Below the pieces are notes generated by a model. It made no database searches. It was not told the origin of the DNA and saw only the letters and a list, made by a program, of their open reading frames with translations. Below are positions 2,907 to 52,069 of a stretch of DNA of 64,000 nt, piece by piece. A program made the translations under genes and the position numbers. The stretch spans positions 1 to 64,000 of IMG/VR virus record IMGVR_UViG_2609460060_000003, one strand, 5' to 3'. Numbering within the stretch: position 1 is the stretch's first letter; every line of letters begins with the position of its first letter. The DNA comes from a virus (Duplodnaviria; Heunggongvirae; Uroviricota; Caudoviricetes).

Positions 2907-3039
2907 AAAGACCTCATAAGCGAATTTTTTACGCTCCAGGACAAACACCCATTCACAGCCAATACCGACTGACTCGATCCCTTTAGAAGGCACAGGATAA
3001 TGCAAATCACTTGTTAGCTACGTTTCAAAGATATACATT

Positions 3040-3056
3040 ATTGCTCTAATTAATTT
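3040..3056. promoter_or_regulatory. C1 repressor operator-like site (ATTGCTCTAATTAATTT) between divergent lyz and ssb
   Basis: One mismatch to the P1 C1 operator consensus ATTGCTCTAATAAATTT. Confidence 0.5.
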
Positions 3057-3075
3057 ATTTTATTAGGTAAGATAA

Positions 3076-3564
3076 GTGGCACAACGCGGTGTAAACAAAG
3101 TCATCCTGATTGGTACCCTGGGGCAAGACCCGGAGATCAGGTATATACCAAATGGCGGAGCGGTCGGAAGACTCAGCATCGCAACGAATGAATCATGGCG
3201 CGACAAGCAAACGGGCCAACAGAAAGAGCAAACAGAATGGCATAAAGTCGTTTTGTTCGGAAAACTTGCTGAAATTGCGAGTGAGTATTTACGAAAAGGT
3301 TCTCAGGTCTACATCGAAGGGAAACTTAAAACCCGTAAGTGGACAGATGACGCCGGTGTAGAACGTTACACGACGGAAATTATCGTCAGCCAGGGCGGCA
3401 CCATGCAAATGATCGGCGCTCGCCGCGACGATTCACAATTCTCAAATGGCTGGGGGCAGTCAAACCAACCTCAAAACCACCAGCAATACAGCGGTGGCAG
3501 TAAACCTCAGAGCAACGCCAATAGCGAACCTCCAATGGACTTTGAAGACGATATTCCATTTTGA
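3076..3564 (+). CDS. ssb: Single-stranded DNA-binding protein
   Basis: GTG start; OB-fold N-terminal region closely resembling E. coli SSB, Gly/Gln-rich linker and acidic tail ending DFEDDIPF. Confidence 0.95.
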
Positions 3565-5038: not shown

Positions 5039-5651
5039 AATAATAGCCTTGAAAACCCAATGGACTATTAGAAAAAACTCAATTCACAGAATAAAAATTG
5101 ACAAAATAGATCAAAAAACAATCAAAAATAAGCACAAAAGACAAACAATTAAATTATCACAAAAATAATAACTGTCAAAAATAGATAGCCTGTTAATTAA
5201 CAGGGCTTTAATGGATGTAGACTTGAAATCTACTTAAAAATTAGAATCAAATTAATTACTGCCGATTGGGTATTAAATTGAATCTATATTGTGAGAGTTA
5301 AAGACGATGTGTTTTAGTTATAAATGTTATTCCCTAAAATGGAGCGGTCTCATCGAATCCTGATTAATAACGAGCTAAGCTAATTCATTTTAGTATGTGT
5401 ATATCTTTACCCTCTGAATATGCAATAAAGAAGAGATATTAAACAATATGTAGCTTCAGGATTGACTCTGGAAGAATTAAAAGATCGACTAAAGTGTTCA
5501 ATATGTGGTGAGCGAAACGCAAAAATTAATTTTTTTTGATCTAACATATTAGGTAACGGCTTGCTTCCATAACCTAAAGCAAGCCACTACGCGTTTACTT
5601 TAAGTACACAATTAACATATCAGAACAGATTATTTTTGCACAATCAGGGAG

Positions 5652-5963
5652 TTAATATACGATCTGGTCTACATGATCACCAAAATCATCATCGTCGTCG
5701 TCATCATCGCCACCATCTACTGCTGGCCAATCAACAAACCAGCCAGCGTAAAGATGCAGCGTTCGGAGAACATCACTTGCGGGAGCATCAAGGGTGTTAA
5801 CGAATCCCATATAGCTATTGGGATTTGCCCCAGCTATGGCTTCAGCGATCATGTCCTCGGTAATGTCACCGGAGATAATGCTTAAACGCCCGGAAACTTC
5901 TTCATTATCATCAAATTCGATAATGGCATCTCCGCCTAATGGCGCTGCGATTTTAATCTGCAT
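5652..5963 (-). CDS. Hypothetical acidic protein, distal gene of the dar operon
   Basis: 103 aa with a run of eight Asp near the C-terminus; start overlaps the ddrB stop. Confidence 0.45.
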   Translation of the reverse strand: MQIKIAAPLGGDAIIEFDDNEEVSGRLSIISGDITEDMIAEAIAGANPNSYMGFVNTLDAPASDVLRTLHLYAGWFVDWPAVDGGDDDDDDDDFGDHVDQIVY

Positions 5964-8940
5964 TATTTAGCTCCTTTGCCACACCTAATAACAGTTCCAG
6001 CAATCCGTCACCATTCATCAGTGATGCGGCAGCGGCCTCTTTGTCATGATACAACTGAAGAGCCATAGAGAATACTTCCGTTGCTGACGTTTTGGAAATA
6101 GTCGGTGATTTCTGCCGAATTTTCCCGGTGTTACTTACTGAGGCTGGCGGGTATACCTTCGCCATATAAATATTACTCAATCGAGATCTGAAGCACCATT
6201 CAGGCTTGCCACGCCCACCGATATTAACGAAAGATGGCTTATCCCCTTCAACATTGGCCTTCAGGAATGACCGGGCTTTCTCTAACAAACCAGGGTTACT
6301 GTACTCAAGATGATGACCCAGCTCGTGCCACAGTGCACTTGCATTTTCATCGTTCAAATTGACAGCAACAACACCATTAAGATTTGCATATGCCCTTCCC
6401 TGGTGGTGAACCACCTTTGATAAGGTCGAAATTTTACCGCCGGTCAGGCGATAAATATCAGCAAGTTCCTTGCGCAGGTCTATCCCACCATTCTGTCCAG
6501 CGCGGGCTTCTTCCACTTCTTCCGTGATAAAAGAGTCGGCCCACTCAAGAGCTTTTTCTTCAGATACGGATGAGTTTGCGATCGCACTGTTCATGGCAGA
6601 TAACACTTTCTCGTGGACCGAACCCATTCTTCGCTGATTCATTTGCCAGCGTGTCTGCGGGTTATATGAGAATCGCTTAAGTAGTTGGTCAAGCTGCTCA
6701 AGTTCTTCTTCACTGACATACCTTTTAGCCTCACCAATAATGCCAGGGAGAATATTGCCGTTAGGATTAAACGCTCGCGAAAGGAAGAGTTTCAGCGCCC
6801 CCATGCCCTCCGATGCTTCAATATCACCAATAACCCGGTTAACAATGGCCGCACTCTTCGGATTAGCATCCGCCAACGCTCTGGCTACAATTTGCAGGGA
6901 CGATACGACCTCACGCTGCATATCAGTCCTGATCTCATCAATAAACTCTGGCGTTATGCCGTACTCTTTAAGGATATCCCTGCCTTCCGCCGTTACCCCA
7001 TCGATATCACCGACATGTTTATTAACCCGACTTTGCAATGCCTTAAATGCCTTCAGAATTCCACGGGCATCATCCACTTTACTAACGGCCTTCCTGAATG
7101 CTGGCAAGAAGTCAGAGTTAACCTCATTTTGTTGATCGGCCCACTGAATGGAGGCTTCTTTCATCTCGTCCAGAGTCAGATCACCCAACGCGGTATGGTC
7201 TGTGAATATGAGCGACAACCTCTGAACCATTTCTGCCAATGGTGATGCCGAATGCGCCGCGCTAAGGAATGCTTTCACCCTGGTTGGGCGAATGGAAAAC
7301 CAGTCAATAGCTGGTGGCATATCTCCGTTTTTTATCGCCTGCGCTATCTCATCAAAGCCGTCGCGCCCAAGGGAGGATGCGTGATTTAACAATCCGCGAA
7401 GTAACGAATTGCTGATACCGAATAATCGGCACCATTTTTTTACGTCGGCAACAGGCATTCGGACAAAATGCGCAAGCACTTGTACAAGCTGCTCATCCTG
7501 GGGATCGGTGCGGGATAGCAGCCTGATCAGATGAATAATGTCTTTGATGCCGGATGCCCGATGTAATAGCAAGCTGGTATATGGAGCAACACCGTTGTAA
7601 CTACCGCCGGAAGCTGACTCGAAAAGACCGCCGGATATCCCTTGCATACCTTCGTTTTCCAGTTCCTGAGATACCTGGCGAAGGATATCCTGTAACGACA
7701 CATCACCGCCGCCAAACATATCCCCGAGCGCCTGGCCCTGGTGCTGTAACTCATCATTGATACGTTGCGCCATCAACTTAAAGGCGGTGGCCATACGCTT
7801 CGCGCTACGGTTATTCGCGACGATAAACAACGCGAGTGCTTTCACTTCCGGGGCCGTTTCGCTGAACATATCCCCCTGAGCAATAACATCGGTAATATGT
7901 TGGCCTGACTCCTTCGATTGTCTTACCAGGTCTACCGCATCTTTCAATGCAGCCAGCGCCTTTTTATCGAGGCTATCCGCTGTTTCAATGCTATCAACGA
8001 TAGTTGTCACAGCCTGCTTGTGCGCTTCTCCTGATAAAGCCTGCATCTGGACAAAATCATTGGCCGCCGCATTAAGCGCCGTCAGAACATTACGCATATC
8101 CGGATCAGGTTCTTCTGCAACCATCCTTACCAAGCGCGCATCCTTATATGCCTTGGCAAAGATCGCGTTTTGTATCCGGTCAACAAGTTGCCGTGTTGGT
8201 CGCCCATCTTCAGTTACAAGTCCAGCCGCCTGTGTGGCACCAACTTGCGTCATAAATCCGCGAATAAACGCGTCATTACTGCGGCTAAGCAGATCTCCGC
8301 TTTCTGACGGGTTAAAAAGCGCCATCATCGCCGGTGTTATGCTGTCGGCATCAACAAAAGCCTTTTCACTGGCTGCCATTTCCTGAAGATCAGAAATATT
8401 TGAGTCCTTGGCAAACTGAACGCGGTCAACCTTAGTTAACCGGCGGCGCACCAGTACCGGAGCCGTCATTGATTCAACCTTTTCAGGTCGTATGCCGAAT
8501 TCGGTCGCATGATCAATCAGGTACTCACGATACCGATCCGCATTGCCGTCCTGATAGGCTTTGATGATCCCCATGGTCCGTCCATTACCTGACTCAACGG
8601 CATTATCCTCACCAATTATCGGCGCGCCATGGCTGGATAAACCGGAATCAGTAAGCTGAGCAGGCCGCAAATCTTTGGATATCTGGTTAACCTGAAGAAG
8701 GCTGGATGCGCGGGTCCGGTCGCGCGGCTGAAGTTCCTGGGGATAGTCAGGATTAATTTTCCCATCCAGAGTATTGGATACCAAAAGAGCTGAGGCATCG
8801 ACGATATCAAACGCTGTTTTTACCTCGTCTCCCTTCGCTGTCACCACATACGAAACCCGCCCATAATCGGGCAGGTTCTTTAGCAGCTCGATCAGCGTTT
8901 CTATGCTGGTGGCCATTACCACCTGATCGCTTAAGCTCAT
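5953..8940 (-). CDS. ddrB: Large Dar-operon protein (DdrB-like), contains an HExxH motif
   Basis: 995 aa immediately downstream of ddrA in the lydA-darA operon order; WHELGHHLE motif near the C-terminus. Confidence 0.55.
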   Translation of the reverse strand: MSLSDQVVMATSIETLIELLKNLPDYGRVSYVVTAKGDEVKTAFDIVDASALLVSNTLDGKINPDYPQELQPRDRTRASSLLQVNQISKDLRPAQLTDSGLSSHGAPIIGEDNAVESGNGRTMGIIKAYQDGNADRYREYLIDHATEFGIRPEKVESMTAPVLVRRRLTKVDRVQFAKDSNISDLQEMAASEKAFVDADSITPAMMALFNPSESGDLLSRSNDAFIRGFMTQVGATQAAGLVTEDGRPTRQLVDRIQNAIFAKAYKDARLVRMVAEEPDPDMRNVLTALNAAANDFVQMQALSGEAHKQAVTTIVDSIETADSLDKKALAALKDAVDLVRQSKESGQHITDVIAQGDMFSETAPEVKALALFIVANNRSAKRMATAFKLMAQRINDELQHQGQALGDMFGGGDVSLQDILRQVSQELENEGMQGISGGLFESASGGSYNGVAPYTSLLLHRASGIKDIIHLIRLLSRTDPQDEQLVQVLAHFVRMPVADVKKWCRLFGISNSLLRGLLNHASSLGRDGFDEIAQAIKNGDMPPAIDWFSIRPTRVKAFLSAAHSASPLAEMVQRLSLIFTDHTALGDLTLDEMKEASIQWADQQNEVNSDFLPAFRKAVSKVDDARGILKAFKALQSRVNKHVGDIDGVTAEGRDILKEYGITPEFIDEIRTDMQREVVSSLQIVARALADANPKSAAIVNRVIGDIEASEGMGALKLFLSRAFNPNGNILPGIIGEAKRYVSEEELEQLDQLLKRFSYNPQTRWQMNQRRMGSVHEKVLSAMNSAIANSSVSEEKALEWADSFITEEVEEARAGQNGGIDLRKELADIYRLTGGKISTLSKVVHHQGRAYANLNGVVAVNLNDENASALWHELGHHLEYSNPGLLEKARSFLKANVEGDKPSFVNIGGRGKPEWCFRSRLSNIYMAKVYPPASVSNTGKIRQKSPTISKTSATEVFSMALQLYHDKEAAAASLMNGDGLLELLLGVAKELNNAD

Positions 8941-12268: not shown

Positions 12269-12594
12269 TTCCCACCTCCCTTTTTCACCAAACTTGTAAG
12301 AACATTCAGAATGCTATCGATATTCACTCGTTTCATCCCTGAAATCACCTCATGACCGTTATTGCTGGCTATCGTTACCATTAAGTACGTAATTGATAAC
12401 TCCCAGCCCTCGTGTTGCCCCAATAGGTACGCCACCGCGCCAGCTGTCACTGCAACAAAGATCTCCGTAACCAATCCCAACAAATTGCCAGACTGGCGAC
12501 CATCTCGGACATCCATCAGGAACGTGCCTATCCCACCAATTACTGAAAGCAGGAGCGCAATAGCAACTGGAGCTAATTCCTGTGTGTCAAGCAC
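12265..12594 (-). CDS. lydA: Holin LydA
   Basis: 109 aa with hydrophobic transmembrane segments and a charged C-terminus; AGGAGG RBS. Confidence 0.7.
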   Translation of the reverse strand: MLDTQELAPVAIALLLSVIGGIGTFLMDVRDGRQSGNLLGLVTEIFVAVTAGAVAYLLGQHEGWELSITYLMVTIASNNGHEVISGMKRVNIDSILNVLTSLVKKGGGK

Positions 12595-12661
12595 AAGTTC
12601 CCTCCTACGTTGTCAGGAGGTAATGGTATGCAAAGTAACTTCTCAACCGGTCATGTTGCTT

Positions 12662-12695
12662 GACATCCTCCACGTCCTTTAGAGCGTGGAGGATG
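12662..12695. other. 12-bp-stem hairpin immediately 5' of the intron-like element
   Basis: ACATCCTCCACG / CGTGGAGGATGT arms with a 10-nt loop; the next base begins GTGCG. Confidence 0.6.
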
Positions 12696-13550
12696 TGTGC
12701 GCCCAGCATGGGCGCGATCTTGGAGGTGAAAGCCCTCCCGCGAGCTGACCACAGCGAGCGAAATGAAGTGCAACTGCGTGAGGGCGACCGGGCGTGGGGA
12801 GGAAGCACGGAATGAACCCGTGAGCCGATGAACGAGAATCGGATATGAGGCGCGATGGAGCAAGGCGAGCAGGCACATCACTGCGAAGCTTTCGTGGTCA
12901 AGTCGAAGTCGCGCAGATCCGACGGTTGTGCGGGGAAGGATCGCGTTCTTACCTGGGGAGTTCTCGCCTCATGCCTGAAAGGGCAACGTCGTAAGACGGA
13001 GCGAGAAGTCAGCAGAGGCCGTAGTAGTCAGGACTCCGACGAAGGGCCGAACGAGAAGGAAAGCCAGAAGATATGACTCTTGACAGGACATTGCGTCAGA
13101 AGCCGAGGAAGCCCGGTACGGACCCGCATGCCGGGTGGTGTGGCAGGGGCGCAGCCCTTGTGCTCCCCCCTATGCCGATCAAGCAGAACATTGTGCTGGG
13201 CCTCTGACGCAGCTCCTTGATGGTCTTGGCATCGTGCTTAAGTGGATTGGTGTCGTCCCTGATAGGATCATGGAGGCAGAATGAAACTCAAAAATCCGGG
13301 ATAGCACGCAAAACAGGCTGCACAAAAAGCGCAGGTTGCGTAGGAGTGAAATCCCGCTCCCAAAAAATGGTGCAGAAGTTGCGGCAGTGGTCATCCGACG
13401 CACTGGAAAATAACAAACCCGCCGTGACCAGAATCGGAGGCCTGAGGGAGTGACCGAAAAACCGGACAACCCAGGCAGCAAATACCCGCTGGATGAGGCA
13501 TGGTTCCGGCAGATAATACCGAAAACCGCCAGACACACTGGATAATCAGT
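12696..13550 (+). mobile_element. Group II intron-like structured RNA segment (no intact reverse-transcriptase ORF; 3' boundary uncertain)
   Basis: Starts GTGCGCCCAGCATGGGCGCG (group II 5' GUGYG signature); GC-rich and GNRA-rich; CCGTAGTAGTCAGGACTCCGACGAAGGGCC resembles a domain II/III region; only short Arg/Pro-rich ORFs on both strands. Confidence 0.45.
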
Positions 13551-13599
13551 AGAAATAATCCATTAAAGTTATTATAATAATTGGTCACATTATTATATT

Positions 13600-14163
13600 A
13601 TGCTGAACAATAGAAATATGACTATTAATGAACTTAAAGACTGTATTCACTATGAAGTAATTGGTAGCGAGCGTCCTTTCTCTTGGCGAAAAGCAATTGT
13701 TCGCGCAATAAAACATAGAAGAGTTCGTTATTTATTTTGGTGGCGCATATCAAAATATCTTTTTGATAAAGGCGGATACAGGCGAAAGGTTGCAGGGAAA
13801 ATAGAACGCTTCATTCTTGACAAATACAATGTAACCGTTCCCTTAACGGTAAATATAGGGAAAGGGTTTGACATATCTTATCTCAATGGCGTTGTTATCG
13901 CTCACAAAGTCACAATCGGTGAAAATTGTTCAATTAAGCCCGGAGTAACTATTGGACTTCGCGGGGAATTTAATGACATGGATATTGTTATAGGAGATAA
14001 TGTGACCATTGGTTGTAATGCCACCATTCTTGGTGGCAAAGTGCGTATAGGAAACAATGTCACAATAGGTGCTCATGCATTGGTATTGCATGATATTCCT
14101 GATGATTCAACATTCATCACTAAATTTCAGTCTGAAGTTATCTGCTCGTCCTCCCGCACATAA
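13600..14163 (+). CDS. Hexapeptide-repeat (left-handed beta-helix) acetyltransferase, WcaB/CysE-like
   Basis: Tandem [LIV]-G-x4 repeats ([16 protein letters not shown]...[33 protein letters not shown]); AT-rich coding sequence; 3' end overlaps convergent tfa by 37 nt. Confidence 0.8.
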
Positions 14164-14744
14164 CCCTGATTCATCAGCTCTGGCCATACGATATCCGGAG
14201 CTGTACTGGTATCAATTCGACTCACTAATACTCTGTATTTTCTCCAGGAGTCCAGTTGTGAATTTTCCTCGTTTGTTGCTATTTCAAGATTAACTGCGTC
14301 CTGCAGAATTGCGATGTTATCTGTTGCCTCCTGGATCAACCTTGCCTTTTTCTCTTCCGCTTCCCGTATCCGAAACAGTTTTTCTGCTTCCTCATCCTTC
14401 ACCCAGGATACGCCGTCCCACTTCTGATACTCCCCTGCTGGCGACAACCAGGTGACATTCTCTGGTAGCGGTCCGGGTTCAGAAATAAACAACGCGTCCC
14501 CCGATGCCACCTCATAGACCGTTTTACCACGATGGTCTTCAACAATATTCCACGATTCATTTTCACTGTTGAAAACTGCCACAAAGCCAGTAGGAATTTC
14601 CGGTGGGGCGATATCTGTAGAATTAGCTGGCAGCCCTGTATGAGGTGGAATATATGCGTCATCTTCACCAATAAACTCATTAGTTCCGGCCAGCAGGTTA
14701 TAAATTTTTACTGTACGTGATTGTTCACTCATTCTGAATGCCAT
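14127..14744 (-). CDS. tfa: Tail fibre assembly protein (lambda Tfa-like)
   Basis: [51 protein letters not shown] is near-identical to the lambda Tfa N-terminus as recalled; start overlaps the tail-fibre stop (TAATG). Confidence 0.9.
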
Positions 14745-17700
14745 TATGCAAGCCTCACAATATAATTAAATGCGATGTTTTTAACGGTGTTTTCCGCGTT
14801 ACCAGCAGCATTAACGGTGATGGTATGTCCATGTGAACCAATCGCAACAGAGTGCGTATGAGCGCCAATACCAACTGTATGTGCATGCGCCCCTGCACTT
14901 GCAGCAGTGCCTGATACTGAGTGGGTGTGTGCACCAGAAGAAGGCACTGTTCCATTCCCCACGACCGTGCCACTTGATGAACCATCAAGCCAGTCGAAAT
15001 TCATACCTCCACTGTTTGGTCTCCTTAATGGAACGGTATGAGTATGTGCGCCAGCACTATTTGCAGTACCAGATACATTGTGGGTATGTGCACCTGTGTT
15101 ATTCGTTGGTTTAGTACCGTAATCAAACGACGATGTGGTTTTCGTCCCCAAATCCGTACTGGATGCGCTGGCGCTGTGGGTGTGCGATTTAATGCCGTCC
15201 TGTTCCTGAGACAATACGGCCCGACCACTGGCAGGTTTGCCCTTAATCGTCCAGCCACGCATATCAGGGATCACGCCTGACGGATAAGCCGCTGCAAGTT
15301 TCGGGTAGGCAGATTTGTCAAAAGCCTGCCCCTGCATCAGGGCATAGCCAGACGGAACGGTATCTGATGGCCACGGGATTGGTGCGCCGACTGGGTAGCT
15401 TTCTGGTGGAAGATTTTTCGAGGTATAAACTTCTGCCCAGTCTTCCTCAAAACCATAACCGTCTCTTGAAGAACGGTAGAACAGACCACCATTTCTGTAA
15501 TGCGCCTTCATCTGCAGGGTCCGGCAACTTCCGAATCCGGTATAGAAGTTAACCAGAATATAGCTGTCGCCAGAGCGGGTGACATTGTAAGCGCCTGATT
15601 CGGCATTCCAGGGAACGCCACCATCCGCATCGGCATATGTATCCGTTGACCCTCTGGCAAAAGCAGCCACATGCGCGGCGGTTAAAGTGATATCAGTAGA
15701 ACCATCAAATGGAACACCGGATATTTTTCTTGCAGTCTGAAGTTTTGTAGCAGTTGCAGCATTACCGTTCAAACTACCATTGATGCCGCCAGTAACATTG
15801 AGTCCATTACCGATCGTAACAGCACCATTGGCATTGTTAATGATAAGCGGCCTTAACCTATTATAGGTTCCTAGGCTGTTACCCGAATCGGTCAACATGA
15901 AATATGTGTTTGAACCATCGTTTCGGATAAAGAATCCGTAGTTTCCGTAGGCAATGCGCAGACCATTCGCCGATTTGGAAATAATCTCGCCAGCAGCAGT
16001 TAATCCGCCAGTTAACGCTCCTCCAGATAGTGGTAAAGCTCCGACATCAGCCGCAGTAGGCTTGTTTTTAGTGTTATACGCTCTGCGCCATCCTGGTGAA
16101 TAGCTCGTCCCGTTAAACACATAGACAAACTCCGCATTAGTGAGTGCGCCAGAGACACCTGTCGTTGTTGCCGTTGTTATACGAATCGTATAATTGTTTG
16201 AGCTACTGCCGTTATTAAATACCTCAATAACTGCGCCAGCCAGTGGAATAATGCCGCATCCTGTTTCGCTGTCTGGTATGGATGCACTATTTGCATACGC
16301 CCAGGCACAACGCGCTATCCATGCTTTTGCATTAAAAGCACCATTATCTCGTAGCAGAGTCACTAATTGCTCTGTTGTTATTGAAGCTCCATTATCACCT
16401 GTTACAAGCCAACCAGTAGGAGATGCCGGGCAACCAATATTTGCTGGTGACAGTGAAATATTCGCAGAACCGTCAAATGAAACCCCATTAATGGTACGCG
16501 CTGTTAGCAATTTGGTAGCCGTAGCTGCATTACCGGTTGTGTTCTGGTTACCAGCAATGTTTACACCCGGCAGATTGATATTGGCGGAGCCATCGAATGA
16601 TACGCCGCCTATTGTGCGTGCTGTTTGCAGTTTTGTTGCAGTTGCAGCATTGCCAGTAGTGCTCTGATTACCTGTTTTATTCACACCTGGCAGGTCGATG
16701 TTTGCGGTACCATTAAATGAAACGCCACCAATGGTTCTTGCCGTTTGTAATTTCGTGGCAGACGCCGCATTTCCTGTTGTGTTCTGGTTGCCCGTTGTAT
16801 TTACGCCCGGTATGGAGTCTTTCGATGTATAGACCTGTGCCCACTCAGACCATGCCGCATCTGTGTTATCTCTTCGGGAGCGAATGAAAACTGGCGCATG
16901 TGCACCGCTCGTACCACTCCAGCCAATAAGCAACTCGCCCTCACCAGCAGCACTCGCACCTTTCATGTGCAATACGTTGCCATACGTGGTCGGGTAGCTA
17001 TTGTTGTACGCCTCGTACATTTGAATGCCAGCAGTGCCTTGAGTAGAGCCGCTTAACGCCGTAACTCGGCCACGAGATACCAATGTATTAATGTTGATAT
17101 CGCCTGAGCCATCAAACTTAACACCGTTGATGTTTCTTGCCGTCGCAAGTTTTGTCGCGGTAGCAGCATTCCCCGTGGTGTTCTGGTTACCTGTTGTATT
17201 TACACCTGGAAGATTGATATTGGCCGAGCCATCAAATGCCACACCGCCAATCGTGCGTGCTGTTTTCAATTTCGTCGCGGTGTCGGCGTTCCCTGTCAGC
17301 GCCCCGGTGATCCCGCCGTTGAAAGTCTGGCGCGCACTCCATGTGTTAGCCGTGCTCAACAGGGGGATCTTTTCACCGCTGGTACCGAGTTCTCTTAAAC
17401 CAAGGTATTGGATAACGGCCAGTGTGCTTGTTTTAGCCAGAATATCGCGACCGACTGACGTTAAATCAGTCTGCGCTACCGTATCCTTACCAGTGAAATA
17501 AGGCAGTTTGTTTGCACCAGTCGCAAGGGCAGCGAGCGCGGTTAAAGTTGCATCCAGAGGCTGTTTGCCTGCCAGCGCATTTGTCATTGTTGTCGCAAAG
17601 TTCGGGTCATTGCCCAGTGCTGCTGCAAGCTCATTCAGAGTATCAAGAGCTTCAGGTGATGAGCCGACCAATGCAGAGATAGCAGCTCTTACATAAGCGG

Positions 17701-18763
17701 TCGTAGCAATCTGCGTGTTATTCGTACCCTGTGCAGCGGTAGGCGCAGTAGGTATTCCCGTTAATGCAGGACTTGCTAAAGGAGCTTTAAGAGCCAGAGC
17801 ATTGTTGATAGTTGTGCTGAAATTCGGGTCGTTATTGATCGCAGCAGCTATTTCTTTAAGCGTATCCAGTGTGCCAGGTGCACCGTTGATAAGTGCCGTT
17901 ATAGCTGCCTTAACAAAGGCTGTATTTGCGATCTGCGTGCTGTTTGTACCTTGCGCTGCCGTCGGCGCGGTTGGCGTTCCTGTCAGACTCGGGCTTTCTA
18001 TTGGCGCTTTGGTATCAGCCAGCTCTTTTACAGACTTAACGGCTTTAGGGGTAGCCGCCATTGTTTCGCTGTCGCTGTTAGTTGCGCTACTGAGCTGAAC
18101 TAATCCCTTTTGTGTTGTGCTTGCATCCTGCGCCGTATACTTGCTTTTAGCCAGATCGTAGGCTTTTTTAACTGCCAGCGAACTCGCAGCAACATCACTT
18201 CTGGTACTGGTTACAGAGTCTGAAATATCAATGCCGATCGTGCGGTTGATACGCTTGGATGTATCAATCATCTCCTGGGTAATGGCAGATACACCAGCAG
18301 GGATATTCACCGTACAAACAAGCAGCTCCCCATCTCCTAACTGATATGAATCGGTATAGGTTCTGGAAACAAATTCAGCCGCATGAATATGTGACGCGGT
18401 ATTCACCTGATAGGTATCTTCTCCAAGGAGGTATCTTCCCTTCAGCACAATTGCATATTTCTTGCCTGCACTAAGTGCAAGAGAAATATCCTTACGTTGC
18501 TGAATAGTTACCTGGTAGAATTCACCAATATCCACCGACGCCGCGCCTGCGGTTTTATCACCATCCACTGAGGTGATTAACAGGTTCATCCCACCGCCAG
18601 GCTTAGGTAAGAAACCGGCATAAAATCCCGGGTCAACAATCCCCCTGAATTTTCGGTTTAGCGCGGCTGACAGATATGGTTCGTGGTATTGCACATCAGC
18701 CACCAGAGCCAACGACTCGGGTGATGGGTAAGTAACCGATGTGACAACTGTAACGTCATTCAT
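14744..18763 (-). CDS. Tail fibre protein (P1 S-like N-terminal part with lambda Stf-like distal part)
   Basis: 1339 aa from ATG 18763 (AAGGA RBS); at least six ~24-aa repeats [28 protein letters not shown]; followed by tfa. The track ORF from 18850 overlaps the upstream gene and is rejected as the start. Confidence 0.85.
17390..17415. other. Relic DNA-invertase crossover site (cix/gix/hix-like) inside the tail fibre gene
   Basis: TTCTCTTAAACC-AA-GGTATTGGATAA: 26 bp, two 12-bp half sites around a central AA, matching the Hin/Gin/Cin recombination-site pattern; no second copy and no invertase gene in the window. Confidence 0.5.
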
Positions 18764-18774
18764 CAAGCATATCC

Positions 18775-19209
18775 TTATGCTGTAGTCGTGTTTATGGCCA
18801 TAACTGCGGTATATGTTTTGCCCACATACAGCGAGTCTTCCTGGACACAAATAATGGCGATTGGCTTGTTCTCGTTATCCAGAACAACCAGAGTGTTGAA
18901 TGGGTAGTTTTTCCCTTCCTGCAACTGGCTTTGATCAAGGTCCATTCGGACAGTTATTATCCCGCCTGAGTAGGTTGGGACGAGGTTGATGGTGCAAAAT
19001 TGACTGGTCAGTTCTGCCAGATCGAAAGCCTTTGGCAGTTCTCCAATCTCATAAGTGCCATCTCCTTTCTTAGTAACCAGTGAACTGGTACCGAAAACGG
19101 CCTTGCTGATTAAAAATCGAGAGCCTTTGTTAATGGACGATTCAGCGCGCCGCTGATAGTAATAGTCCAACAACTGACTCTTATAGAGGTTTGTTGAGAC
19201 GTCAGACAT
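18775..19209 (-). CDS. Tail fibre-associated protein (P1 R-like)
   Basis: 144 aa immediately upstream of the tail fibre gene; stop overlaps its RBS. Confidence 0.45.
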
Positions 19210-29291: not shown

Positions 29292-29320
29292 TTGACCTTT
29301 TAATCGTTCAGGCTTATAGT
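29292..29320 (+). promoter_or_regulatory. Sigma-70 promoter of the immI (c4-icd-ant) transcript
   Basis: TTGACC, 17-bp spacer, TATAGT. Confidence 0.6.
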
Positions 29321-29439
29321 TTCGCCGTCGTAGCAAATTCTGCGACCGGGTTTAGCAGCCTGAATGATTGTGCGGACAGCCGCAGATATCCGATATTGCG
29401 GTATTTTTGTGTCCGTAAAACCGCGTTACGCCCAAATTA

Positions 29440-29515
29440 TGGTGGGGCGTGATGGGGAGGCTTCGGCCTGCTGGTTTCACAATCGCCAGTCTGCTAACCC
29501 CGTCACGTCCTGCCA
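29440..29515 (+). ncRNA. c4: c4-type antisense repressor RNA (approximate boundaries)
   Basis: Contains CACAATC and CTGCTAA, complementary to the motif GTTTAGCAGC...GATTGTG that occurs upstream (29350-29372) and again over the icd RBS (29519-29556). Confidence 0.5.
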
Positions 29516-29567
29516 CCTGTTTAGCAGCGGGTAGCAGGTTGTTAAACCTGATTGTGAGGCCGTAACT

Positions 29568-32955: not shown

Positions 32956-33078
32956 TACAATCGTTGCGGGTGCTTGAGGCTATCTGCTTCAGGCATTACC
33001 CGAAAAGCAGATAGAAGAAAGCCCCAGATAACATTACGCGTCCTGCAAGACGCTTAACATTAATCTGAGGCAATATCT

Positions 33079-33285
33079 ATGCTTAGCATACGTAGATTAG
33101 CCTCTTACCGACCAAAAGGTCAAGGAGAAGCAGGCTATGAAGCAGCAAAAAGCGATATTAATCGCTCTGATCGTCATCTGTTTAACCGTCATTGTGACGG
33201 CACTGGTAACGAGGAAAGACCTCTGCGAGGTACGAATCCGAACCGGCCAGACGGAGGTCACTGTCTTCACAGCCTACGAATCTGA
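33079..33285 (+). CDS. mok: mok-like overlapping frame of the hok module
   Basis: 68-aa ORF beginning 58 nt upstream of hok and overlapping it in a different frame. Confidence 0.4.
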   Translation: MLSIRRLASYRPKGQGEAGYEAAKSDINRSDRHLFNRHCDGTGNEERPLRGTNPNRPDGGHCLHSLRI

Positions 33286-50382: not shown

Positions 50383-50457
50383 GATGGTGTAGCTCAGCGG
50401 TAGAGCAGTTGGCTGTTAACCAACTGGTCGGTGGTTCGAATCCACCCACCATCGCCA
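50383..50457 (+). tRNA. tRNA-Asn (anticodon GUU)
   Basis: Cloverleaf folded by hand: acceptor GATGGTG/CACCATC, D-arm GCTC-AGCGGTA-GAGC, anticodon loop CTGTTAA, T-arm GGTGG-TTCGAAT-CCACC, encoded CCA. Confidence 0.85.
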
Positions 50458-50462
50458 CTTTA

Positions 50463-50549
50463 GGGGAGTTAGTCCGTAGGGGTAGCGGGGTAGACTGTAA
50501 ATCTACTGTCATTGCGACTCGGGTGGTTCGACTCCATCACTCCCCACCA
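50463..50549 (+). tRNA. tRNA-Tyr (anticodon GUA), class II with long variable arm
   Basis: Perfect 7-bp acceptor stem GGGGAGT/ACTCCCC, anticodon stem-loop GTAGA-CTGTAAA-TCTAC, variable-arm hairpin, T-loop TTCGACT, encoded CCA. Confidence 0.7.
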
Positions 50550-50553
50550 AATT

Positions 50554-50629
50554 GCCGGTTTAGCTCAGTTGGTAGAGCGCCTGCCTTGTAAGCAGGATGT
50601 CAGCGGTTCGAGTCCGTTAACCGGCACCA
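50554..50629 (+). tRNA. tRNA-Thr (anticodon UGU)
   Basis: Acceptor GCCGGTT/AACCGGC, D-arm GCTC-AGTTGGTA-GAGC, anticodon loop CTTGTAA, T-loop TTCGAGT, encoded CCA. Confidence 0.85.
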
Positions 50630-50720
50630 ACACAACAGGTAAGGGTATTTTGCGACGTCGGAGATCGCCGTGCTTGGCAGAGGGTTCGAATCCCTACGAA
50701 GTACCCTTACCGTTGTGATG
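50630..50720 (+). other. tRNA-like / long-hairpin element (non-canonical; contains a T-arm-like GAGGGTTCGAATCCCT)
   Basis: CACAACAGGTAAGGGTA pairs with TACCCTTACCGTTGTG about 55 nt downstream; no canonical cloverleaf could be folded. Confidence 0.3.
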
Positions 50721-51360
50721 AAGTGCAGCTCTTTGAAGCAACCAGAAGATAAGCATCTGGCTTCACAACATAAACCGCAGGAACGACCAATAAACGGTAG
50801 TCCGTATGGAGAACACCCCGTTGAGGAAGAGGCCTGGCCGGAACCGTAACCGGCACTACAACGTTGAGAACACTGGCGTAACGGGGTCATATCCCAATCT
50901 ACGAATAAATGTTGCGTTGCAGCGTGACAACCAGTGTTCTCAACATTGTGGTGAATGCACAGGCTGATGTGCCGCAACTACAGTAGTGCGCGCTTTGCGG
51001 GGCTTGCTACAACCCTGTGTCGGAGTTCAGCACCGACCATCACAGTTTGATTCTCTGGCATGAGCATAACGCTGAAATAAGTCCAGTCTGGTGCGGCCCG
51101 ATCACCCGCCGTTAGCTCCACGAAACGGAGCACGTAACAGGTAAGAGCATTCTCCTGTAACGGGTTCATATCCCAATCTACAGGTCCACCAGGAATGCTC
51201 TTTCCGTTGCGGTGAATGCGGCTAAGCGCACGCGGAACAGTTAAAACAATCCTCCTTAATGGTTAAACATTCCGGCGTTAATTGTTAACTGGTTAACGTC
51301 ACCGGGAGGCACTCGGCACCGCAATCTAATAAATATGTCACTTTTATTGAGGGATAACCA

Positions 51361-51795
51361 ATGTTCGGTAAATTGTTCGGCAAGAAAGTCGCTTCTGCAA
51401 AAGTAGAGCTGAAAAAAGTTGAGAATCGCGATCTGATGGAGGCCATCATCGGTGGCTGTTTGTTGGTGTCTGCCGCTGATGGTGAAATCGAAAAAGAAGA
51501 AACAGCGAAACTTGATCAGCTTGTCCGCTCTAATCCGCGTCTTAGTCATTTTGGTAACGAAATTACTGCAACAATTACCCGCTTTACCGAGCAACTGGAA
51601 GCTGGCTTCCGTGTTGGTCGCATGAATATCCTTCGCGAAATTGAAGATATCAAAAACGATCCAAAAGAAGCGGAAGAAGTATTCGTTAACATGCTGACAA
51701 TTGCAGAAGCGGACGGTGAAATCGAGCCAGCAGAACACAAAGTACTGGAAGAAGTAGGCCGTCGTTTAGGTCTTCGTGTGGAAGATTATCTGTAA
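51361..51795 (+). CDS. tciA: TerB-domain protein (TciA-like)
   Basis: 144 aa with two AADGEIE repeats typical of TerB. Confidence 0.75.
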   Translation: MFGKLFGKKVASAKVELKKVENRDLMEAIIGGCLLVSAADGEIEKEETAKLDQLVRSNPRLSHFGNEITATITRFTEQLEAGFRVGRMNILREIEDIKNDPKEAEEVFVNMLTIAEADGEIEPAEHKVLEEVGRRLGLRVEDYL

Positions 51796-51959
51796 TGGCA
51801 AGCAAGGCACGTATCGCAATCGCCATTGGTTTTCTCTTGCTGTCCGTGCTGGTGGATTTCACCAGCACAATCCTGTCAGTTTTATCGGACGGGGCGTTGG
51901 TGGCAGTAGCTGTAACATTGGTATGGCCGATATTAAAAACAGCTTCTAAGGATCAGTGA
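51795..51959 (+). CDS. Small membrane peptide (TciB-like), translationally coupled
   Basis: 54 aa, ATG overlaps the tciA stop (TAATG); two hydrophobic segments; below the track cutoff. Confidence 0.4.
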   Translation: MASKARIAIAIGFLLLSVLVDFTSTILSVLSDGALVAVAVTLVWPILKTASKDQ

Positions 51960-52066
51960 TGGGCTTCTGGGATTTTGCTGACAAGCATCCAATTGTTCTC
52001 GTTGTCATTGCTGGCATAGTTGTAGGCGGTATTGCTGGCGTCATAGAAGCACTCAGGAAACAGTAA
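51959..52066 (+). CDS. Small membrane peptide (TciC-like), translationally coupled
   Basis: 35 aa, ATG overlaps the upstream stop (TGATG); single TM segment. Confidence 0.35.
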   Translation: MGFWDFADKHPIVLVVIAGIVVGGIAGVIEALRKQ

Positions 52067-52069
52067 TCC

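Follow-up and report, generated by a model that had tools for sequence, protein, structure and literature searches.

What has taken the place of lydC and cin in a P1-like phage-plasmid that carries neither gene where P1 has them? We asked this of a 64,000-nucleotide stretch of viral DNA, positions 1 to 64,000 of the IMG/VR record IMGVR_UViG_2609460060_000003 (hereafter the window, at its full length). An earlier inspection of the letters alone (the sequence-only reading) had marked there about 860 bp without a credible open reading frame (ORF) and had taken it for one entity: an ORF-less group II intron, a decayed one, or an unrelated large structured RNA. The flagged block consists of two unrelated things, an intron at 12697–13179 (about 56% of the block) and a fragment of a phage tape measure gene. 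The segment 12697–13179 is a real bacterial group II intron of class C (IIC) without a reverse-transcriptase (RT) gene; of the three options the first two both apply, and an unrelated structured RNA is excluded. We consider it likely that this 483-nt ORF-deleted intron, whose arrival was probably by retrohoming into an IS609-type palindrome, lost its protein gene and the foot of the catalytic domain through a single microhomology deletion and has since then been carried along passively at a single locus.

The intron and its domains, with domain V (D5) and domain VI (D6) placed by homology, are as follows. L003, L004, L005 and L010 are relatives of the intron in other records, L011 is a locus that keeps its 3' end, and L016 is an allele without the intron.

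12697–13179, plus strand: ORF-deleted class C (IIC) group II intron of 483 nt, from 5' GTGCG to 3' ...CTATGCCGAT; Rfam matches, 97.8% identity to L005 5028–6860 on both sides of the deletion, and exactly absent from L016.
12778–12948, plus strand: domain I core, Rfam model RF02001 (group-II-D1D4-3), including the loop of exon-binding site 1 (EBS1) at 12872–12884; 96.9 bits, gathering threshold 32.
12966–13047, plus strand: domain II, J2/3 and domain III, Rfam model RF01998 (group-II-D1D4-1); 46.8 bits, gathering threshold 35.
13109–13138, plus strand: domain V, damaged, reading AAGCCCGGUACGGACCCGCAUGCCGGGUGG where full-length copies have CCGCCCGGUGCGGACCCGCAUGCCGGGUGG; homologous to what directly follows the stop codon of the protein gene, ltrA, in L004, L005 and L010.
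13146–13179, plus strand: domain VI hairpin (13146–13173) with the presumed branch A in CUAU, then the 3' end ...GCCGAU; aligned with L004, L005, L010 and L011.

The 5' signature noted from the letters alone stands where it was seen: GTGCGCCCAGCATGGGCGCG begins at 12697, directly after the stem of a hairpin, its GTGCG (12697–12701) agrees with the boundary consensus GUGYG, and the introns of L003, L004, L005 and L010 likewise start with GTGCG directly after their 5' exons. A covariance-model scan, the check that the sequence-only reading had proposed, placed both RF02001 and RF01998 above gathering, indicating a domain I–III ribozyme fold; the RF02001 match has an E value of 1.9e-18 for the whole window, far beyond chance, and the motif CCGTAGTAGTCAGGACTCCGACGAAGGGCC, in which a domain II/III region had been suspected, falls inside the RF01998 match. 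The same pair of matches has been reported for a class C phage intron (PMC12350094). Domains V and VI, which could not be placed by eye, both exist. The Rfam D5/D6 model RF00029 scores only 17.4 bits at 13107–13179 (E 1.6, gathering threshold 40), and it gives no gathering-level match on the retrieved full-length relatives either, so that a low score says nothing about the absence of these domains. We therefore rejected an absence of D5/D6 read from RF00029; the homology of this part of the window to the segment that follows ltrA in full-length introns settled the matter and provides the placement. The D6 hairpin is followed by CUAUGCCGAU, with the 3' end at 13179, in alignment with L004, L005 and L010; the branch site was assigned by eye.

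Taken together, the small ribozyme, the CGC triad in intact relatives, the endonuclease-free protein of the full-length form and the stem-loop target match the published definition of class C introns (PMC4424553; PMC1702495).

Where exactly does the intron sit, and was the site there before it? Three features describe the target, with ^ marking the insertion point here and below and IBS standing for intron-binding site.

12660–12696, no strand: 5' exon, comprising the left arm, the loop and 12 of the 15 right-arm bases of a 40-bp palindrome, TTGACATCCTCCACG-N10-CGTGGAGGATGT^CAA; seen as an inverted repeat and, uninterrupted, in the allele L016.
12692–12696, plus strand: IBS1 (GATGT), five bases at the very 3' end of the 5' exon; can pair with ACATC (12875–12879) of the EBS1 loop.
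13180–13182, no strand: CAA, which closes both the palindrome and the IS609-type right end and opens the 3' exon (IBS3 = C); present after the intron in the window as well as in L005, L010 and L011.

The hairpin is a perfect 12-bp inverted repeat at 12663–12674 and 12685–12696 with a 10-nt loop; its stem length had been read correctly and its coordinates (12662–12695) were off by one. On the reverse strand, 12660–12674 reads exactly CGTGGAGGATGTCAA. The allele L016, on the P1-like plasmid NZ_CP033848.1, matches the window at 12500–12696 (99%) and at 13179–13700 (93.9%) with nothing between, and reads ...CTTGACATCCTCCACGTCCTTTAGGGCGTGGAGGATGT^CAAGCAGAAC... (also given as GGATGTCAAGCAG, GGATGT^CAAGCAG). 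Exactly 12697–13179 is absent from it, a clean presence/absence polymorphism of the kind that a mobile element leaves. Without the intron, the site forms a perfect palindrome of 40 bp, TTGACATCCTCCACG-N10-CGTGGAGGATGTCAA; the intron interrupts its right arm three bases from the end. The window thus combines insertion at a stem-loop, with a stem of 12 bp in the window and 15 bp in the empty allele, with a short EBS1–IBS1 pairing. The putative pairing covaries with the 5' exon from copy to copy: ACAUC/GAUGU in the window and L005, CAUA/UAUG in L003 and AAC/GUU in L004. In the last two, from Pseudomonas (L003) and Sinorhizobium meliloti (L004), the intron follows a typical terminator at a distance of a few bases (...CCGCCAAGAGGCGGTTTTTTTGTATG^GTGCG and ...CCCCGCCACAGCGCGGGGTTTTCTGTT^GTGCG, respectively). 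The Rfam matches, the stem-loop and the EBS1–IBS1 pairing bear out the original proposal of a class C intron at a stem-loop.

The loop and right arm of the palindrome equal the right end of IS609/insQ, and the intron-less elements L012 and L013 end in ...CGTGGAGGATGTCAA. In the window it is the left arm that differs, making the palindrome perfect, and no tnpA or tnpB lies adjacent to the palindrome there. Both full-length E. coli introns that we examined sit at GGATGT^CAA inside IS609 right ends, L005 beside yedK and L010 beside traG. At these two loci (L005 3731–5027 and L010 1971–3000) the intron lies 3 nt from the right terminus of an element of the IS200/IS605 family and directly downstream of TnpB (insQ), a position that would coincide with the edge of the element across which TnpB guide RNAs are read.

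The perfect palindrome also occurs with identical boundaries and without insertion sequence (IS) or intron, at L019 2499–2538, L018 2499–2538 and L023 9174–9213 as well as at L016 1461–1500. L019 is a P1-like plasmid with a different tail module, L018 a prophage in which the palindrome stands just after a LexA-family repressor gene, and L023 a contig of Parasutterella muris, the one match in a scan of species-representative genomes for the perfect palindrome. The contexts of this 40-bp sequence, four or more in number, are unrelated to one another, and many of them are places where phage modules meet; it behaves as a discrete unit, possibly a mobile element or a recombination hotspot. We had considered that the hairpin is the stub of an IS609 copy deleted in place, and dropped this idea when the identical 40-bp unit was found elsewhere without IS or intron.

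Could the intron have arrived by another route than insertion at this site? An IS609::intron composite might have entered complete, through transposition or recombination, and been trimmed afterwards, L016 being a later precise loss. Such an origin would fit the full-length L005 and L010, which occupy the same GGATGT^CAA inside IS609 right ends; the DNA after CAA is unrelated among L005, L010, L011 and the window. It would also fit the relic at L011, which keeps an apparent stub of the IS609 left end, and the composite does seem to move as a unit. The window hairpin, however, is a perfect 40-bp palindrome and not an imperfect IS609 right end, the same palindrome exists intron-free with identical boundaries in four unrelated contexts, and a loss as precise as this would take either splicing followed by reverse transcription or an exchange with an empty allele by recombination. 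We regard this origin as improbable. As L016 is most simply an unoccupied site, the intron probably retrohomed into a palindrome that already existed in a P1-like plasmid. An intron RNA–protein particle would have reverse-spliced into the DNA stem-loop and would then have been copied into DNA; reverse splicing into stem-loop DNA is the usual route for class C introns without an endonuclease.

Next we asked how the protein gene was lost. In the full-length E. coli intron L005 (NZ_CP169399.1, 2049097–2050929) the ltrA gene (WP_000186915.1; coding sequence 5405–6775) encodes 456 amino acids (aa) with RVT_1 and GIIM domains and without an endonuclease domain. Positions 12669–13116 of the window are 97.8% identical to L005 5001–5448 and positions 13111–13182 are 94.4% identical to L005 6793–6863. 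What is left at the seam is the following.

13073–13116, plus strand: remnant of the gene for the intron-encoded protein (IEP), ATG plus about 14 codons (MTLDRTLRQKPRKP), in the 5' part of domain IV; aligns with the ltrA start in L005.
13111–13116, plus strand: deletion junction, GCCCGG microhomology; present both in the 5' codons of the IEP gene and in domain V of the full-length intron.

The two L005 alignments overlap by these 6 nt, GCCCGG, which the full-length copy carries once in ltrA codons 15–16 and once in domain V. We therefore conclude that 1,344 bp were deleted between two GCCCGG repeats. The deletion took all but about 14 codons of the RT/maturase gene, the 3' half of domain IV and two basal D5 pairs including the first base of the catalytic triad; the junction sequence of the resulting ORF-less form is GAAGCCCGGTACGG. 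The segment beyond the junction is homologous to the DNA directly 3' of the ltrA stop in L005, L010 and S. meliloti L004. The reading frame that starts at 13073 now runs for 44 aa into D5–D6 and has no Pfam match. The window copy thus encodes no RT/maturase and keeps a remnant only, in line with the absence of an RT reading frame noted earlier. Slippage, illegitimate recombination or template switching by the reverse transcriptase could each have produced the deletion, which would have occurred once, before the spread of the P1-like lineage.

Other shortened derivatives of the same intron were met in E. coli and on its plasmids. At L011, about 3000–3228, where ygiV and parC flank the site on an E. 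coli chromosome, the final ~225 nt of the intron survive, with the C-terminus of the protein, D5, D6 and CAA, preceded by a short sequence (TTATCCGGTGCGCCGTAA) similar to what borders the IS609 left end on its outer side. Matches to this 3' piece at 90–95% identity occur in about 1,400 E. coli records, and the locus, inspected at one site, looks like an old deletion derivative of an IS609::intron composite that became fixed in many lineages. L007 655–976, on the 52-kb plasmid NZ_CP025895.1 between a truncated ccdB and sopA, holds the palindrome, the first ~180 nt of the intron and D5–D6 at 83–91% identity; it is a second, independent mini-derivative on F-like plasmids, too short for a ribozyme. 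L002 4001–4400, near aggR/aaf on the IncF plasmid CP056614.1, a virulence plasmid of enteroaggregative E. coli, is a 5' fragment of the intron that is 96% identical and lacks the first 21 nt; it lies ~1 kb upstream of transposase genes of the IS66 family.

Is the copy in the window still active? The deletion exchanged the first two bases of D5 (CCGCCCGG to AAGCCCGG), which in full-length, intact form begins CCGCCCGGUGCGG. With the loss of the two basal pairs the triad changed from CGC to AGC and its first base became unpaired, and the domain is no longer intact; the minimum free energy (MFE) of the D5 hairpin is −13.9 kcal/mol, compared with −20.4 kcal/mol for the full-length sequence. All ORF-less copies carry in addition a G-to-A change beside the D5 bulge (UGCG to UACG), giving an A/C mismatch, and a G-to-C change that breaks one pair of D6. 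Four divergent ORF-less copies differ from the window by 1.5–3.5% in the intron and by 1.9–2.2% in the adjoining pseudogene, and comparison of the two regions in these four copies gave no sign of sequence constraint on the ribozyme. Insertions and deletions among the ORF-less copies comprise 6-nt and 2-nt deletions in domain I and single-base events in D6, and their RF02001 scores range from 95.5 to 104.1 bits, compared with 103.6–105.5 bits in full-length copies. For the direction of substitutions we used all rows other than L014. From these features of its sequence, the intron copy is most likely inactive, neither spliced nor mobile, and the ORF-less element would now be drifting neutrally.

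The distribution of the ORF-less form was traced in plasmids, E. coli genomes and viral contigs. It is present in 35 plasmid records, a count that is the same with or without the flanks in the query, in 34 of 5,426 complete E. coli genomes, again equal to the count of the flanks, and in three IMG/VR contigs, all with the same P1-like flanks. Nowhere in these three collections was the ORF-less junction found outside this context, which makes one locus only. A megablast search of 50,697 phage records matched only 62 nt of the P1 backbone and no intron. Full-length copies occur in only 3 of the 5,426 E. coli genomes. These three carriers do not include any of the listed hosts of the ORF-less form, and in those hosts no cognate protein was found. 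The main phage transcripts of the locus run on the strand opposite to the intron. A promoter scan of the intron strand detected no promoter-like site upstream of the intron within the scanned region; the nearest such sites on that strand lie downstream, at 13530–13578.

Several observations weigh against inactivity and passive inheritance after a retrohoming event. The argument for neutral decay rests on a few dozen substitutions in four copies. In D5, seven pairs of the lower helix and the bulge remain, and AGC, the new triad with A as its first base, is the usual triad in other intron classes. Domains I–III are nearly intact, with RF02001 in the window only ~7 bits below the full-length copies and RF01998 at the same 46.8 bits as in full-length L005. 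The window copy has also kept the 5' part of domain IV, the usual site of maturase binding. As to arrival, L016 could in principle be a precise loss, and the divergence between the alleles does not polarise the event.

The main rival draws on the same observations: the ORF-less intron would still be a working ribozyme and a non-autonomous retroelement, spliced or delivered in trans by the RT/maturase of a full-length copy. The preserved domains I–III and the 5' part of domain IV, with its start codon, would suit such an element, as would the precise presence/absence polymorphism at a canonical target with a 5-bp EBS1–IBS1 match. Moreover, since no full-length copy turned up in a P1-like plasmid, it could have been the ORF-less form that made the insertion. 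For bacteria it is documented that ORF-less introns can be acted on in trans (PMC4424553), and the same has been suggested for a phage (PMC12350094). Against this stand the single locus of the ORF-less form, the two missing basal pairs of D5 with a mismatch beside its bulge, the broken D6 pair, the domain I insertions and deletions that accumulate among copies, and a cognate protein in just 3 of 5,426 genomes. We consider delivery or splicing in trans unlikely and favour a copy that was inactivated by the deletion and is inherited with its host plasmid.

We then asked what surrounds the intron. The window is a P1-like phage-plasmid, with darA, hdf, lydB and lydA on the minus strand up to 12594 and the tail-fibre genes S and U at 14127–18850. 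The neighbouring features are listed here, the coordinates of LPdar having been transferred through the L001 alignment.

12623–12641, minus strand: LPdar, a P1 late promoter and the last feature of the P1 backbone; annotated at L001 4024–4042, within the match to L001 4001–4064.
13180–13545, plus strand: piece of a P2-like tail tape measure gene, frameshifted and lying outside the intron; DNA and tblastn homology.
13530–14163, plus strand: start of a module common with P2-like prophages, with a promoter-like site (13550–13578) and a hexapeptide acetyltransferase gene (13600–14163); 95.4% identity to L009 from 13530, Pfam Hexapep E 5e-14.

Homology to P1 (96.9% identity between window 12600–12661 and P1 31189–31252) stops at about 12661, just beyond LPdar, where P1 itself continues with lydC and cin, as the sequence-only reading had recognised, and with the invertible C segment. 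From 12662 to 14744 the window carries instead the palindrome with the intron, the tape measure fragment, the acetyltransferase gene and a tail-fibre assembly gene of P2-like type. Since these have replaced lydC, cin and the C segment, switching of tail fibres by inversion should be lost. Elsewhere in the window (29314–29520, 32968–33142 and 50383–52142) Rfam models matched the P1 immunity C4 antisense RNA with its a1/b1 targets, a sok antitoxin RNA and four tRNA genes; C4 RNA, sok (of a hok/sok-type addiction module) and tRNAs are as expected for an element of the P1 type.

The block flagged at first is indeed GC-rich (0.52–0.62 across 12600–13500 versus 0.34–0.50 on either side) and free of credible ORFs, the longest being 73–119 aa, all of them without a match in a Pfam search. 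It is not one entity of ~860 bp: the intron ends at 13179, 13180–13545 is the tape measure fragment, and the prophage module starts at about 13530. Window 13184–13532 is 74.7% identical in DNA to an internal part of the tape measure gene of a P2-like prophage, and tblastn (E 2e-17) aligns it with about residues 713–840 of 1,016 aa, split over two frames and with in-frame stops. A frameshifted coding gene, which had been named as the finding that would tell against an intron, is thus present in the 3' 366 bp, whereas the intron part has its covariance-model matches. The module from 13530 also holds a tail-fibre assembly gene in prophages, and the tape measure fragment probably came with this P2-like tail-fibre/acetyltransferase module, which replaces lydC, cin and the C segment. 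In the window the acetyltransferase gene (13600–14163, plus strand) overlaps the 3' end of the tail-fibre assembly gene (14127–14744, minus strand) by 37 bp. Its product is annotated as serine acetyltransferase in other records, and it lies beside tail-fibre assembly genes in hundreds of E. coli prophages; a role in lysogenic conversion or receptor modification is possible.

The position of the block upstream of this gene and on the same strand, its GC content and its lack of ORFs could also be those of a regulatory RNA that has nothing to do with group II introns, be it a leader or another structured RNA serving the acetyltransferase gene. Against such a leader there are the strong group II covariance-model matches and the tape measure gene in the 3' part. 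The acetyltransferase module, too, has a promoter-like site of its own, starts at 13530 and occurs without the block in many prophages. MFE z-scores are unremarkable and do not discriminate between the two parts of the block (−1.2 for the intron, −1.5 for the tape measure fragment). The covariance-model matches, the alignment with full-length L005 and the tape measure homology in effect already refute this explanation, to which we give almost no credence; the 5' part of the block remains for us a class C intron.

How does this intron compare with known systems? The closest is the full-length E. coli intron L005, with 97.8% identity in domains I to IV (5' part), 94.4% in D5–D6, and the same right arm of the hairpin, GGATGT^CAA site and EBS1; it differs in having the 456-aa RT/maturase gene, an intact D5 with CGC triad and nine lower pairs, and an imperfect IS609 hairpin. 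Terminator-type IIC introns such as B.h.I1 of Bacillus halodurans (PMC1702495; PMC4424553) share the small ribozyme, the insertion at a stem-loop, the short EBS1–IBS1 pairing and, in the full-length relative, the endonuclease-free protein. In contrast to these, the stem-loop in the window is not a terminator, having no T tract, the insertion point falls within the stem itself, and this copy lacks an ORF and has suffered damage to D5. The IIC-attC introns such as S.ma.I2 (cited in PMC4424553; PMC3001079) are likewise a class C sub-lineage that reuses one family of recombination-site hairpins on mobile DNA, but the target here is an IS609-type hairpin and not an integron attC site, and the promoter scan detected no outward promoter in the intron. 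Known ORF-less introns of bacteria and phages (PMC4424553; PMC12350094) are likewise without the protein gene, keep ribozyme domains and have full-length relatives in the same species; the functional ones, however, keep an intact D5 and usually share a genome with the cognate protein, whereas D5 of the window copy is clipped and its hosts are generally without a full-length intron. Finally, IStrons (PMC4227781) resemble the E. coli loci L005, L010 and L011 in that a ribozyme intron is tied to the end of an IS200/IS605-family element and is apparently carried along. IStrons, though, are integrated units with a group I ribozyme at the other element end, while the intron of these loci is a group II retroelement that simply integrated 3 nt away from the IS right terminus. 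We found no account in the open-access literature of this E. coli lineage, of an association of class C introns with IS609 ends, or of an intron in a P1-like plasmid outside integron cassettes.

To our knowledge, group II introns were long thought to be nearly absent from phages, and ORF-less ones are rare in bacteria. The Rfam D5/D6 model stays below gathering even on the intact relatives examined, and covariance-model scans for this reason miss such copies. The element itself is an ordinary decaying relic of a known type, and the intron probably does nothing for the biology of this plasmid. Since one allele shows the empty site and the deletion could be reconstructed exactly, this class C insertion in a widespread family of P1-like phage-plasmids serves as a natural example of the arrival of a retroelement followed by its decay. 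Of greater interest is the choice of target, as the lineage repeatedly occupies the IS609 right-end hairpin and the related palindrome; if confirmed, this would extend the target range of class C introns. A bolder version, which we put forward as a doubtful one, is that an E. coli class C lineage has specialised for the IS609-type right-end hairpin and a derived, solo 40-bp palindrome, hitch-hiking on IS609, with the ORF-less form as a still-mobile 'mini-intron' delivered by the RT in trans. If it were true, IS609-type hairpins would join terminators and integron attC sites as a third family of stem-loop targets in DNA.

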